NCBI RefSeq assembly: GCF_003334785.1
Contig: NZ_QOWV01000050.1
Length of the DNA stretch: 3,829 bases
From: Escherichia coli
GTDB lineage: Bacteria; Pseudomonadota; Gammaproteobacteria; Enterobacterales; Enterobacteriaceae
Reading direction: 5' to 3' (one strand)
This document shows, one piece after another, positions 1 to 3,806 of the stretch (the stretch's first letter is position 1; each line of letters opens with the position of its first letter). Both the position numbers and the translations under genes were made by a program. The notes under the pieces are model-generated. The model searched no databases and was not told where the DNA came from. It worked only from the letters and a program-made list of their open reading frames with translations.

Positions 1-62
1 AGAAAATATCCGGCGGGTTCCGGAGCGCCAGTCTGTAGGTTTATCCATCAATAGAACTCCGT

Positions 63-1042: not shown

Positions 1043-1139
1043 AACTTTATCAGTCCATAAGAATCAACGGAAGCACCGATGGTTCACTTGGTCATCGCCA
1101 AGTTTTGCCATAACCGGTAGCAATGATCATTCTGTGTAA

Positions 1140-1310
1140 CTATTTGGCCCACAGATGATGATGTTTATCGATGTCTCCTCTGTCTGAATGTCGCATAAAG
1201 AGGATCATCAGCAGACACAGCCAGTGAACCACCGTCCGCGGAACAAAGCGCCGGACCACATCCGGATCCGGCAGGGGCATGACTGGCATGATCAAGTAAT
1301 TATGTCGCAT
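1140..1310 (-). CDS. Candidate 56-aa small protein with a hydrophobic segment (possible small membrane peptide), apparently coupled to the upstream Cys-rich gene
   Basis: The ATG at 1310..1308 lies 5 nt downstream of the stop of the Cys-rich paralog B (minus-strand reading TGA-GGGAG-ATG, so a GAGGGAG SD-like element overlaps the upstream stop). The product MRHNYLIMPVMPLPDPDVVRRFVPRTVVHWLCLLMILFMRHSDRGDIDKHHHLWAK contains a roughly 14-18 residue hydrophobic stretch. The track's 80-aa version (start 1382) would overlap the upstream gene by about 67 nt and seems less likely. Weak evidence; could be chance. Confidence 0.25.
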   Translation of the reverse strand: MRHNYLIMPVMPLPDPDVVRRFVPRTVVHWLCLLMILFMRHSDRGDIDKHHHLWAK

Positions 1311-1315
1311 CTCCC

Positions 1316-1729
1316 TCACTCCTGGTCCCGGAGCAAATCTGGCTGGTATCTGTAAACATACTTCGTACATGCCGCTCTGCAATAAATCCCCGTACCACAG
1401 GTTTCACAGAACTTCTTCCCATGAAAAAGCCTCTCGCACATCACGCAATGCCACTCCAGCACGACAGGTAATGGCGATAAAAACATCGCCATATCATCAA
1501 TGTAAGGATGGGATTTTTCCGGATTCAGCACCACACAGGCCGCCTTCTGTTGCTCGCTCAGGGCATGTAAATCATGCTCAAACCACGCCCCCTGAGCATC
1601 TGTCTGCAAAATCAACCGACCACGACAGGAAAGGCAGAAACAATGCCTGATATTTCTGCTGAGCGCAGAATCGGCACTGATAATGTGCTCACCCGGCGTG
1701 ATCCCCAGCCCCGTTTTTAGACCGTTCAT
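1316..1729 (-). CDS. Cys-rich putative zinc-binding protein, paralog B (137 aa); function unknown
   Basis: Minus-strand ORF whose ATG (1729..1727) overlaps the stop TGA (1728..1726) of the upstream paralog as ATGA, with a GAGGAGG SD-like sequence inside the upstream gene's 3' end. It shares with paralog A an N-terminal CxxC (CLSC) followed about 13-15 residues later by W-F-E-H (nt about 1574..1585), and a C-terminal W-H-C-x2-C-x9-C-x-T-C-x-T-G signature (WHCVMC...CETCGTG). Conservation of these motifs between two adjacent same-strand ORFs is strong internal evidence that both are real. Confidence 0.72.
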   Translation of the reverse strand: MNGLKTGLGITPGEHIISADSALSRNIRHCFCLSCRGRLILQTDAQGAWFEHDLHALSEQQKAACVVLNPEKSHPYIDDMAMFLSPLPVVLEWHCVMCERLFHGKKFCETCGTGIYCRAACTKYVYRYQPDLLRDQE

Positions 1730-2115
1730 CCTGCCACTGCCTCCTCACTGAAACGCCCTGTATGACAGTGTGTGCAGTACCGCTCCCCATAATAATCGTG
1801 CTGGCATTGTCTGCAGTGCCAGTTGGCTTTACGCACCACGGGTAAGGCATCCGGTACCCATTGCTGTAAGCGTTTAATCAACAGTATTTCTCTGCGCTCC
1901 GGTCTGACATAAGGGCACTCATGACCGTGCTCAGCCAGCCCTTCGCCAGTGTGTTCAAACCAGGGACGCTCGGTATCGTATTGCGGGTGGTATCTGAGCG
2001 CACTGCCGCAAAGGTGACAGGTGTATCGATCGTAAGGCGCTGTCTGTGCAGTACGGGCACCAGTCAGGCGTCCGTTGCCATCGAATGCGAGAAAAGATTT
2101 TGCGTACATCGTCAT
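1726..2115 (-). CDS. Cys-rich putative zinc-binding protein, paralog A (129 aa); function unknown
   Basis: Minus-strand ORF with ATG at 2115..2113 (alternative ATG at 2109) and GAGGAA upstream (minus-strand reading GCTGAGGAAT-ATG). It contains CHLC, then W-F-E-H (nt about 1951..1962), then a C-terminal WHCRQC...CTHCHTG zinc-ribbon-like arrangement, with the same order and spacing as paralog B. The spacing does not match P2 Ogr / P4 Delta zinc fingers as I recall them. Confidence 0.72.
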   Translation of the reverse strand: MTMYAKSFLAFDGNGRLTGARTAQTAPYDRYTCHLCGSALRYHPQYDTERPWFEHTGEGLAEHGHECPYVRPERREILLIKRLQQWVPDALPVVRKANWHCRQCQHDYYGERYCTHCHTGRFSEEAVAG

Positions 2116-2371
2116 ATTCCTCAGCCGCCAGACGACACGCAGGCAGCAACCGTCCCGGTACGGGCAGCGTGGTCAGGGTGTGAATGGCGGTTCAGTTAAA
2201 AATCTGGAATGGGGTTAAGGTAAAACAGACAGGCTGCTGTTACAGCACTGTGGTTGTCACACAATGGCCCACCGACGTAAAAAACTGTCAGCAAGCAGAG
2301 ATGGACATCCAGCGCATGCAGCACCGTTGCAGCCATCAGGGGTTTTACTGGTGTGTCATGTATAGTTAAGT

Positions 2372-2397
2372 CTCCGTATGGTTTCGTTCATACGGAG
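2372..2397. repeat. Perfect inverted repeat / hairpin (9-bp stem CTCCGTATG / CATACGGAG, 8-nt loop GTTTCGTT) in the non-coding gap
   Basis: Read directly: 2372..2380 CTCCGTATG, loop 2381..2388, 2389..2397 CATACGGAG. It sits about 93 nt downstream of the HUH-protein stop (2491) on the minus strand. There is no U-tract on either side, so it is not a canonical intrinsic terminator; it could be an RNA stability element, a protein-binding site or a nick-site hairpin. Confidence 0.5.
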
Positions 2398-2490: not shown

Positions 2491-3090
2491 TTATACCTGA
2501 GAACATATCCCCGGCAGGGTGCTGTCCAGTCGCGGTCGCCCCCGGTGACTTTTTTCAGGAAGCCTGCTGCAACCAAGAACGATGCCACATTCTTTCTGTT
2601 CTCGTTTGGCAAGGTAGCTAATGGCATAGCGTAAAGCATTCACCGCTTTGTGGTCTGAATAGTGAATGACGTGGTTAATGTTTACCGGATAATTTTTATT
2701 AAACCGGCACCAGTGGTAGTAACCATTACCATCGGTAACCCGCCTCCAGATATCTCCCATCAATCTGGATACCAGATACGAACTCCTGTGGATCTGACCG
2801 TTCAGATAACCCACAAAATGAATGTGAAGCCCTTTACGTTCCGTATATTCCATCACCCAGGCATACCCGACCAGTTTATCTCCTACCTCGTTAATCAGTT
2901 GCAGCATCTCCGCGCACATGGCATACCTGCAGGCGCATCCGTAGCTGAATGTGTTTTTTCGGTAAGCAAAATCCATTCTGAACGGTAACAGTTTCGAATA
3001 TACCCCGAATAATGAATCCAGATGCTGGTTAAAGTGTGTCAGGAGCTGGGGATCCATTTCGTAACCGGGATTGGCGTTGTAAGTCTTCAT
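2491..3090 (-). CDS. HUH-endonuclease-like (Rep-like) protein, YagK/YfjJ 'inovirus Gp2-like' family, about 199 aa
   Basis: Minus-strand ORF, stop TAA at 2493..2491. The likely start is the ATG at 3090..3088, preceded by GAGGAAG (minus-strand reading ACGAGGAAGAAAC-ATG); the track's upstream ATG at 3117 adds 9 residues and lacks an SD. Sequence shows an HUH motif G-L-H-I-H-F-V (H-I-H at nt 2818..2826) and a downstream Y-L-A-K (nt 2605..2616), the arrangement of HUH relaxase/Rep active sites (His pair for metal, catalytic Tyr in YxxK). The size is about that of E. coli CP4-6 YagK as I remember it. Family name is from memory, not a search. Confidence 0.65.
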   Translation of the reverse strand: MKTYNANPGYEMDPQLLTHFNQHLDSLFGVYSKLLPFRMDFAYRKNTFSYGCACRYAMCAEMLQLINEVGDKLVGYAWVMEYTERKGLHIHFVGYLNGQIHRSSYLVSRLMGDIWRRVTDGNGYYHWCRFNKNYPVNINHVIHYSDHKAVNALRYAISYLAKREQKECGIVLGCSRLPEKSHRGRPRLDSTLPGICSQV

Positions 3091-3321: not shown

Positions 3322-3534
3322 TCAGGTAACATATTTCCAGACTGAAGCGGGAACACGATCGTAAAGTTTGTTCATGGTCAGTTCTGCCAGCCGGTGATCG
3401 ACCGCAGAGTTGAAGGCTTCCATCTCCGCTGGAGTAAGCTTATAACGCGTGTGGGAAATCACTTTTTCCAGTGTCTCCCGGGATGAACAACGACGGAACT
3501 GATACAGCCAGTCTTCTTTGGTCTTAACTTCCAT
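3322..3534 (-). CDS. Small hypothetical protein (70 aa) immediately upstream of the HUH gene; possible regulator, function unknown
   Basis: The ATG at 3534..3532 is preceded by GAGAGGA (minus-strand reading AACGAGAGGATA-ATG); stop at 3324..3322. The track's longer 117-aa version starts at 3675, but that N-terminal extension runs through a palindrome-rich AT-rich region and has no SD, so the shorter form is preferred. Product MEVKTKEDWLYQFRRCSSRETLEKVISHTRYKLTPAEMEAFNSAVDHRLAELTMNKLYDRVPASVWKYVT is charged and helical; it does not resemble AlpA as I recall it. Confidence 0.5.
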   Translation of the reverse strand: MEVKTKEDWLYQFRRCSSRETLEKVISHTRYKLTPAEMEAFNSAVDHRLAELTMNKLYDRVPASVWKYVT

Positions 3535-3571
3535 TATCCTCTCGTTATTTTGTGCTGTGATTAACGTTAAC

Positions 3572-3577
3572 ATAATA
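3572..3577 (-). promoter_or_regulatory. Candidate -10 hexamer TATTAT (minus strand) for the small-protein / HUH-protein transcription unit
   Basis: Minus-strand reading ...GTCAGAATACGTTATTCTGACGG-TATTAT-GTTAACGTTAATCACAGCACAAAATAACGAGAGGATA-ATG. TATTAT matches the sigma70 -10 consensus at 5 of 6 positions and lies about 38 nt upstream of the ATG at 3534. The -35 region is poor (GTCAGA/TCAGAA) and overlaps the 10-bp-arm inverted repeat. Pattern-based only. Confidence 0.3.
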
Positions 3578-3578
3578 C

Positions 3579-3601
3579 CGTCAGAATAACGTATTCTGAC
3601 G
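3579..3601. promoter_or_regulatory. Operator-like perfect inverted repeat CGTCAGAATA-acg-TATTCTGACG (10-bp arms, 3-bp spacer)
   Basis: Read directly: 3579..3588 CGTCAGAATA, spacer 3589..3591, 3592..3601 TATTCTGACG. A perfect 10-bp-arm inverted repeat is unlikely by chance in 3.8 kb, and it overlaps the -35/spacer of the candidate promoter, as expected for a dimeric repressor operator. Confidence 0.45.
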
Positions 3602-3806
3602 TCATCCCGGAAGTCTTTCCACTTTCCTGTCTCTCCGGTAATAAAACATTTTAAATGCTGAAGGCATAACGCCATAACCAGATATTACAAGTAACGTGGC
3701 GTTACACGTGTTAATGCATTACAGAAGTAACAGAGACAATCAGATAGTAAACGTAACCGGCTCATTTAAACCGTCTGGTCTGTTTCCTCCGGCTCTACAA
3801 AAATAA

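Follow-up and report, generated by a model that had tools for sequence, protein, structure and literature searches.

CoiA is a single-stranded DNA endonuclease with a small putative zinc finger at its N-terminus (bioRxiv 10.1101/2024.02.06.579203). Integrative islands of the CP4 type, which bring together a P4 integrase with AlpA, YagK/YfjJ, GTPase, DUF932, antirestriction and CbtA/CbeA genes, are among the commonest carriers of defence and virulence cargo in Escherichia coli and its relatives. HUH Rep-like enzymes act on single-stranded DNA, as CoiA does, and P4 Delta, a small zinc-binding protein, consists of two Ogr-like units in tandem. Here we analyse a window of 3,829 nucleotides from E. 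coli (contig NZ_QOWV01000050.1) that holds two adjacent genes for small zinc-ribbon proteins, termed ZnA and ZnB. New here are the homology of these proteins to the CoiA finger, found by profile comparison, the placement of their genes in the island backbone, and their link to both active and degenerate Rep-like genes.

The ZnA-ZnB gene pair and its family

The window matches the chromosome of E. coli TW10722 at 100% identity and is part of a CP4-type integrative island. Every gene in it lies on the minus strand: hha (3322-3534), a YagK/YfjJ-type ('inovirus Gp2') HUH Rep-like gene (2491..3090), ZnA (1726..2109), ZnB (1316..1729), an annotated 56-aa ORF (1140-1310), a gene of the ECs1377 family (383-1006) and a small hypothetical gene (63-287). 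ZnA (127 aa, WP_000270994) was delimited from the ORF list, RefSeq, a start kept across genera and dN/dS, and its paralogue ZnB (137 aa, WP_001013763) from the ORF list, BLASTP, RefSeq and dN/dS. Both the sequence and the ORF coordinates show that the ZnA stop and the ZnB start overlap at 1726..1729, which reads tcat on the plus strand and ATGA on the coding strand. An earlier, sequence-only reading of this DNA had described two same-strand genes of 129 and 137 aa with an ATGA overlap; the strand, the overlap and the 137 aa stand, and the 129 aa does not. It corresponds to a longer ORF (1726..2115) that begins at an upstream, non-conserved ATG at 2115, whereas the second ATG (2109, M-Y-A-K-S) is the start used by RefSeq and is conserved across genera, so that ZnA is 127 aa long. 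Within the 3' end of ZnA, 10 nt 5' of the ZnB ATG, an AGGAGG hexamer resembling a Shine-Dalgarno sequence can be read from the minus strand (1740..1745), and its presence would be compatible with coupled translation of the two genes.

The proposal that the two proteins are paralogues was borne out: pairwise BLASTP aligned them at 31% identity over 87 aa (E 2e-11), and the same two Pfam models are matched end to end by both. A toxin-antitoxin arrangement was rejected, the two products being paralogues of the same fold. Nei-Gojobori estimates of dN/dS, taken over E. coli alleles and between genera, were 0.10-0.24 for ZnA and 0.21-0.30 for ZnB; therefore, both are real protein-coding genes under purifying selection. 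Their ORFs are intact in the window and identical in several strains. The A-then-B order with overlapping genes is also found in Salmonella, Superficieibacter, Mixta, Yokenella and other E. coli, the overlap measuring 13 nt or 4 nt, and in Serratia the A and B genes are adjacent without overlap. As the A-then-B pair recurs across genera (the pairing is kept in at least six, and loci with a single zinc gene exist too), the duplication is old. A-type proteins are conserved, with 60-73% identity between genera, and B-type proteins are far more diverse.

The DNA flanking the pair was also inspected. Upstream of ZnA on the minus strand lies a leader or promoter region (2110..2290) whose DNA is conserved across genera in an alignment of eight loci from seven genera, with the conserved blocks TTTTTTACG, GTGTGACAACCAC, GGGACGG, CCTGCGTGTCGTCTGGCGG and AGGAA. 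A consensus scan of the minus strand of this leader yielded no match to the sigma-70 consensus, and an RNA explanation of the leader was rejected, with no Rfam match and no covariation (RNAalifold -6.7 kcal/mol). At the other end of the pair, a terminator-like hairpin (1249..1273, minus strand), picked up by the consensus scan only, lies 43 nt 3' of the ZnB stop and inside the annotated 56-aa ORF; it is a weak candidate for the end of the ZnA-ZnB transcript.

Although the sequence-only reading recognised no named family, a Pfam scan assigned both proteins to two. DUF7828 (PF25165) is matched by ZnA at 2e-28 (model positions 1-87 of 87) and by ZnB at 4e-22 (model positions 2-86 of 87), and Zn_ribbon_11 (PF11682, formerly DUF3279) is matched at 1.3e-9 and 1.1e-14, respectively. 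The N-terminal ~88 residues correspond to DUF7828 and the C-terminal ~35 to Zn_ribbon_11, and all 34 of 34 divergent relatives match DUF7828. RefSeq labels both proteins 'putative zinc ribbon protein', 'Ybl85' is among the UniProt names, and the UniProt label 'DNA-directed RNA polymerase beta subunit' that some family members carry is spurious. Neither ZnA nor ZnB matched NCBIfam, PADLOC or PHROGs, sequence searches of the PDB with single sequences and with the family profile gave nothing below E 0.1, and a literature search on the Pfam, UniProt and RefSeq names of the family found no paper mentioning it.

When 1.84 billion representative proteins were searched in depth with an HMM, 272 matches were returned, nearly all of them stand-alone proteins of 120-145 aa, and no informative fusion to an enzymatic domain was seen among them. 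One protein of 238 aa in this set bears an additional N-domain. The named organisms are Enterobacterales (Escherichia, Salmonella, Citrobacter, Klebsiella, Enterobacter, Serratia, Yersinia, Budvicia, Pectobacterium, Mixta, Erwinia, Moellerella and others), and by the measure of these searches the family has few members and a narrow reach. A scan of genome contigs with an alignment of closer members returned 10 loci. Among 5426 complete E. coli genomes, ZnA is present in 3807 (~70%) and the A+B segment, at a coverage of at least 80%, in 1410. ZnB is frequently truncated or IS-disrupted in other strains, and some apparent A-only cases, such as the BL21-derived C41(DE3), are cases of IS-truncated ZnB. 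None of 50,697 phage records contained the family, and 33 of 72,556 plasmid records did, several of these being chromosome-sized.

Predicted metal sites and homology to the CoiA finger

ZnA consists of an N-terminal domain (residues 1-88; 1846..2109, minus strand), classed by Pfam and hhalign as a DUF7828/CoiA_N-like zinc finger, and a C4 zinc ribbon (residues 95-124; 1738..1827, minus strand), which belongs to Zn_ribbon_11 and has nearly invariant cysteines. The CxxC, WFEH and C-terminal Cys motifs are present in both proteins just as they had been described, namely C31-x2-C34, W50-F-E-H53, C65 and W97-H-C99-x2-C102-x9-C112-x2-C115-x-T-G in ZnA and C32-x2-C35, W49-F-E-H52, C65 and W93-H-C95-x2-C98-x9-C108-x2-C111-x-T-G in ZnB. 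In an alignment of 34 divergent members, C31, C34, F51, H53, C65 and W97 (ZnA numbering) are invariant, and A18, C99, C102, C112, C115 and G118 are nearly so. Only two four-ligand sites are kept family-wide, a CCHC site (C-x2-C...F-x-H...C) and a C4 site (C-x2-C-x9-C-x2-C); the Cys and His ligands of the motifs are thus shared by the homologues, while the Trp and Glu of WFEH vary. The predicted ligands of the ZnA N-domain are C31, C34, H53 (in WFEH) and C65, and those predicted for ZnB are C32, C35, H52 and C65 together with C95, C98, C108 and C111. From the four conserved ligands of each site, we infer that both proteins bind metal.

The AF2 model of ZnA is confident and compact (pLDDT 85, pTM 0.67), with the N-domain at ~85-92. 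When this model was compared with the PDB using Foldseek, matches to rubredoxin, HypA, MCM and ribosomal zinc ribbons were obtained over the last ~40 residues only (E>0.8), and a comparison with AFDB50 retrieved the protein's own family only. ZnA and ZnB were also modelled as a fusion through a (GGGGS)6 linker, using an alignment that combined seven true pairs with unpaired rows of either type, and the result was judged by pLDDT and pTM. Both halves of this fusion reached ~90 pLDDT with the same secondary-structure layout, and its pTM of 0.45, as against that of ZnA alone, is approximately the value expected from two independent halves; a confident heterodimer was not obtained.

The relationship of the N-domain to CoiA was established by profile comparison. 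Authentic streptococcal CoiA proteins, so named by NCBI and UniRef, were fetched with a pneumococcal CoiA sequence that served as a probe only; these proteins have precomputed matches to DUF7828, to CoiA_N and to the CoiA nuclease domain. Comparison of 32 DUF7828 N-domain sequences with 26 authentic CoiA N-termini using hhalign gave a probability of 96.8% (E 3e-10) over 62 columns, in which the pattern 'F-x-A-x-D-x-x-G-x-L-x-x-A', the CxxC, the F-x-H and the last Cys align with CoiA. Therefore, the W-F-E-H of ZnA and ZnB corresponds to the H-F-A-H of CoiA. Direct matches to Pfam CoiA_N (PF25164) were seen in 8 of 34 members, all of them sub-threshold (best 1.3e-3) and covering the CxxC knuckle only. 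Judged from these alignments, the N-domain of ZnA and ZnB is a homologue of the zinc finger with which CoiA begins. A check for the PF06054 nuclease core of CoiA found no match at E<=10 in ZnA, ZnB or 34 relatives and no conserved acidic/Lys triad, and the two proteins end ~30 residues beyond the ribbon.

The layout CxxC...(D/E)H...Cys is also found in HNH/His-Me finger nucleases, and the sequence-only reading had raised this as a hypothesis; the likeness proved to be superficial. The residue before the histidine, E52, is replaced by S, T, M or I in several members and by Ala in CoiA, while H53 is the sole invariant His and completes the CCHC site. The 34-member alignment contains no further invariant polar residue, neither a conserved Asn nor a second His, no HNH family appears in the Pfam lists of ZnA, ZnB and their relatives at E<=10, and no beta-beta-alpha-Me fold was retrieved in the structure comparison with Foldseek. 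Thus, as far as sequence and predicted structure can tell, ZnA and ZnB show no sign of a nuclease nature.

Backbone position and Rep-like neighbours

Gene order was mapped in 30 loci using home-made HMMs and the precomputed Pfam tags of the contigs. A recurring order was observed: GTPase, DUF932 and antirestriction genes on the opposite strand, then the YagK/YfjJ-type gene and AlpA, then ZnA, an optional ZnB, variable cargo and a P4-type integrase. AlpA may precede or follow the YagK/YfjJ-type gene, and in some loci a ~190-aa family stands between the two. The cargo comprises Qat, SLATT and other genes in the strain of the window, Dpd in Citrobacter, an SNF2/AAA/S8-protease/methylase set in Klebsiella, an SMEK/CTD10/MC6/DUF2326 set in loci L024 and L025, and an ars operon in L027. 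The YagK-AlpA-Zn arrangement is retained even in those members of the family that have diverged most (24-27% identity to ZnA). In CP4-57 of E. coli K-12, which is without a zinc gene, the AbpAB and RnlAB defence cargo comes straight after alpA-yfjI-yfjJ. Together with the other loci, this identifies the slot after YagK/Zn as the cargo slot and the zinc gene as a frequent, non-universal backbone gene, and it further shows that a YfjJ-type protein is without a strict need of a zinc gene. The zinc genes are therefore conserved backbone of P4-integrase/AlpA/YagK(YfjJ) islands of Enterobacterales and not cargo; where the pair had been taken for accessory-island cargo, it holds a backbone position just before the cargo slot in the Enterobacterales loci examined.

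The YagK/YfjJ-type gene of the window, recognised from RefSeq, motifs and synteny, is the conserved upstream neighbour of ZnA. Its H-x-H motif and C-terminal Tyr motif are conserved in 14 homologues, so the earlier description of a Rep-like HUH gene upstream of the pair was right. Outside the lineage of the window, ZnB is always followed by a gene of ~190-220 aa, which is UCP030791 (PF27752) in other genera and is annotated as 'inovirus-type Gp2 / YagK-YfjJ domain' in E. coli. UCP030791 and the E. coli gene after ZnB are related to the YagK type (BLASTP E 1e-9 to 1e-11, via an intermediate that keeps H-Y-H), and hhalign matches among the YagK, UCP030791, f190 and ECs1377 alignments are weak (E 0.007 for YagK vs UCP). 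The Rep-like gene after ZnB is without the HUH histidines, Citrobacter excepted.

The numbers of the two kinds of gene are correlated across ~14 non-redundant locus types, all of which were found via ZnA homology. A single zinc gene goes with a single Rep-like gene (Klebsiella, L024-L028), and loci with two zinc genes have two Rep-like genes in ~8 locus types by the non-redundant count. The lineage of the window is the exception, with its downstream Rep-like gene gone and both zinc genes intact: deletion relative to RM14516 (L030) has removed this gene along with a UCP-like gene of 165 aa, and the 56-aa ORF is left at the junction. The chief reason to think that the zinc proteins work with the Rep-like proteins is this joint variation in copy number. 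However, the window and RM14516 are 88% identical in ZnA and 28% identical in the upstream YagK, so that ZnA and YagK alleles do not co-vary, which counts against a tight one-to-one protein partnership.

Possible functions and comparison with known systems

To account for these observations, we propose that ZnA and ZnB may be small proteins without enzymatic activity, each having two predicted metal sites, in which an N-terminal, CoiA-like CCHC finger would be joined by a linker helix to a C-terminal C4 zinc ribbon. The pair would be transcribed from its own conserved upstream region, after the HUH Rep-like gene and before the cargo slot. The proteins would bind nucleic acid in a zinc-dependent manner, probably single-stranded or structured DNA, and could act beside the island's Rep-like proteins, as accessory or targeting factors, in replication, mobilisation or the control of these processes, thereby providing as stand-alone proteins what the finger presumably provides in cis to the CoiA single-stranded DNA nuclease. 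For this reading of ZnA and ZnB, as zinc-dependent binders of nucleic acid that are accessory to the Rep-like module, we see somewhat less than an even chance. We infer a nucleic-acid role, both DNA binding and a partnership with Rep-like proteins, because two four-ligand sites occur in proteins without an enzyme domain, because the finger is homologous to that of CoiA, and because of the backbone position beside HUH genes and the copy-number relationship. The isoelectric points (7.7 for ZnA, 6.6 for ZnB and a family median of 7.7) are not markedly basic and limit confidence in nucleic-acid binding.

A more specific version of this proposal, which we regard as unlikely in its full form, gives each zinc protein its own partner, the HUH-competent YagK in the case of ZnA and the HUH-less UCP030791/YagK2 in that of ZnB, the zinc proteins acting as CoiA-type fingers for DNA structure and the whole as the replication or mobilisation engine of CP4-type defence islands. 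If this were true, such an engine, so far undescribed, would be present in islands of most E. coli genomes and would explain how 'cryptic prophages' move and exchange cargo without phage or conjugation genes. ZnA lies at the exact border of backbone and cargo slot, and its CoiA homology, together with its synteny and copy-number relationship with Rep-like genes, offers a testable way into the workings of these islands.

The main alternative, to which we assign a low probability, casts ZnA and ZnB as the island's own transcription factors of the zinc-finger kind, comparable to Ogr/Delta of P2/P4 and having two specificities. The targets in such a scheme would be island genes or helper-phage genes. 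The islands bear a P4-type integrase and an AlpA/Vis-like regulator, the proteins resemble the Ogr/Delta proteins of P4-integrase-type elements in being small, predicted to bind zinc and free of enzyme domains, the tandem duplication of P4 Delta parallels that of A and B, and the conserved DNA upstream of ZnA could be an autoregulatory site. However, Ogr has the spacing C-x2-C-x22-C-x4-C, whereas ZnA and ZnB have other spacings and two metal sites each, and Ogr_Delta is absent from their Pfam output; that the Cys spacing is unlike Ogr/Delta had already been noted correctly. Furthermore, the family is absent from all phage records, its homology is to a finger on a DNA-processing nuclease and not to a transcription factor, and zinc-gene copy number tracks the Rep-like genes.

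Lower still is the probability that the two proteins are protein-binding adaptors or zinc scaffolds for Rep-like or host proteins and make no contact with nucleic acid. Zinc ribbons and treble-clef-like fingers are common mediators of contacts between proteins, and both the near-neutral pI and the co-occurrence of ZnB with a catalytically dead, HUH-less Rep-like paralogue would suit such a role. Against it, no docking signal was obtained, even for A with B in the fused model, and ZnA does not co-vary with the YagK allele. There is a slim chance that the pair in the window is an orphaned, functionless remnant, kept by recent descent after the loss of its Rep-like partner. The lineage is without the YagK2 and UCP-like genes that come after ZnB in other E. 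coli, and the frequent truncation or IS disruption of ZnB in other strains points the same way, but neither ORF is broken, several strains carry identical copies, and dN/dS against diverged alleles is 0.1-0.3 for the two genes.

Finally, it is very improbable that ZnA-ZnB is a two-subunit HNH/His-Me-like nuclease and a cargo module for defence or anti-defence: the CxxC...EH...CxxC layout bears a superficial likeness to HNH domains stabilised by zinc, defence cargo of the island (Qat, SLATT and others) lies within 20 kb and the zinc gene directly adjoins the cargo slot, but the acidic residue before the His is variable and Ala in CoiA, HNH families are unmatched, ZnA, ZnB and four neighbour proteins gave 0 matches to PADLOC-DB 2.0 at E<=0.1, and the genes are island backbone. 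The HNH-like defence nuclease was thus a false lead that the analysis removes, and the interpretation given in the sequence-only reading is supported in part, its nuclease and defence-cargo components finding no support.

With respect to described families, ZnA and ZnB are full-length members of both DUF7828 and Zn_ribbon_11, Pfam families that come without functional information. Because these families are catalogued and routinely annotated, the two proteins are no new kind of object; on present evidence they represent a catalogued family with an inferred role and not a new mechanism. The closest comparison is with the N-terminal finger of CoiA, with which ZnA and ZnB share the layout of an N-terminal beta-beta-alpha unit followed by C-x2-C, a beta-hairpin, F-x-H and a final Cys. 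CoiA, a protein of natural transformation, continues into the PF06054 PD-(D/E)XK nuclease and a C-terminal region, whereas ZnA and ZnB have in their place a linker helix and a C4 zinc ribbon; and while CoiA belongs to the competence regulons of Firmicutes, the ZnA/ZnB family consists of stand-alone proteins of 125-145 aa from islands of Enterobacterales.

DNA upstream of ZnA

Across genera, the approximately 190 nt lying 5' of ZnA, the first of the two paralogous DUF7828 and Zn_ribbon_11 genes, are more highly conserved as DNA than the proteins are as proteins. This region (window 2110-2290, minus strand) has equivalent spacers in loci L003, L008, L011, L015, L016, L018, and L019, and its conserved blocks are TTTTTTACG, GTGTGACAACCAC, GGGACGG, and CCTGCGTGTCGTCTGGCGG. 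A search of 2110-2290 yielded no Rfam match, no covariation, and no match to the sigma-70 consensus. The region could serve as an operator or as a promoter of unusual type, or the Rep-like protein could use it as an origin or nick site. Farther upstream in the yagK-ZnA spacer, a perfect 9-bp inverted repeat with an 8-nt loop (CTCCGTATG / CATACGGAG, window 2372-2397) lies within a spacer portion of about 200 nt (about 2291-2490) that is absent from other genera, and no T-run follows it.

Deletion, module shuffling, and Rep-like paralogues

Compared with E. coli RM14516 (L030), the window lineage has lost approximately 1.7 kb from the interval that separates ZnB from the ECs1377-family gene (window 1043-1315; compare L030 1002-2970). 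The lost DNA includes the gene for a 165-aa UCP-like protein as well as the second Rep-like gene. A 56-aa open reading frame (ORF), WP_001216314, is annotated at the deletion junction (window 1140-1310). Because of this position, the terminator-like hairpin inside it (1249-1273), and the lack of a match in any library, the ORF may not be a genuine gene. ZnA and ZnB of the window are 88% identical to those of RM14516, whereas the upstream YagK genes share just 28% identity, and YagK of RM14516 has 64% identity with a gene from Superficieibacter. Island modules have undergone shuffling.

Outside the window lineage, the genes directly following ZnB are assigned to Pfam UCP030791 (L011 8852-9391, L016 6790-7386, L017 6836-7471, L018 6906-7343, and L020 6746-7450) or, in E. 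coli, are the downstream genes termed YagK2 (L029 1942-2508 and L030 1937-2503). The proteins of both groups are related to YagK-type proteins by BLASTP, yet their HUH histidines are substituted (for example, GRMLLLLNQD and YLMVLLLNND compared to HYHAVLLLNRD) and the Tyr motif is lost. From their sequences, UCP030791 proteins and E. coli YagK2 appear to be degenerate Rep-like paralogues.

ZnA and ZnB variants, and the start of hha

In other genera (L017, L018, L020, and L011), ZnA ends in an additional Cys-containing tail (...TACAC, ...TCVC, or ...VCAY) and ZnB in ...NY(R/C)C(N/S)T; the window ZnA lacks such a tail, and the window ZnB has C117 and C121. These C-terminal cysteines could bind metal at a third site or form a disulphide. 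ZnB alleles are mosaic (among P0169, P0176, P0186, P0195, and P0234), some of them joining an N-terminal half like that of the window to a C-terminal half from another B lineage, and one 238-aa protein carries an additional N-terminal DUF7828 domain ahead of a complete copy. Copies with 86% identity to the E. coli gene are found in the same AlpA/YagK backbone on metagenome-assembled contigs labelled 'Collinsella sp.' or 'Bacillota bacterium' (L014, L015, and L023); these most likely represent binning contamination from Enterobacteriaceae.

The hha gene (window 3322-3534, minus strand) is annotated by RefSeq as 70 aa starting at 3534. A longer reading of its ORF (window 3322-3675) gives 117 aa, of which the NCBIfam Hha model covers only residues 51-116.

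Island neighbourhood

On its cargo side, the source-genome island (L001 1-20000 and L002 1-20000) carries the Qat system, with QatB/C/D and a KAP NTPase, and a pair made up of SLATT and a nucleotide-binding protein. Genes for a 3'-5' exonuclease and a GIY-YIG nuclease, the latter frameshifted, are also present there, as are fragments of T6SS genes and several copies of IS66; window 1-48 holds the terminal part of a gene for an IS66-family transposase. Within the backbone, a family of approximately 190 aa, which has no Pfam annotation, recurs beside AlpA and at times again downstream of the UCP030791 gene (L003 6022-6555, L008 6498-7091, L011 9502-10089, and L001 25946-26518). In CP4-57 of K-12, its place is occupied by YfjI (DUF3987).
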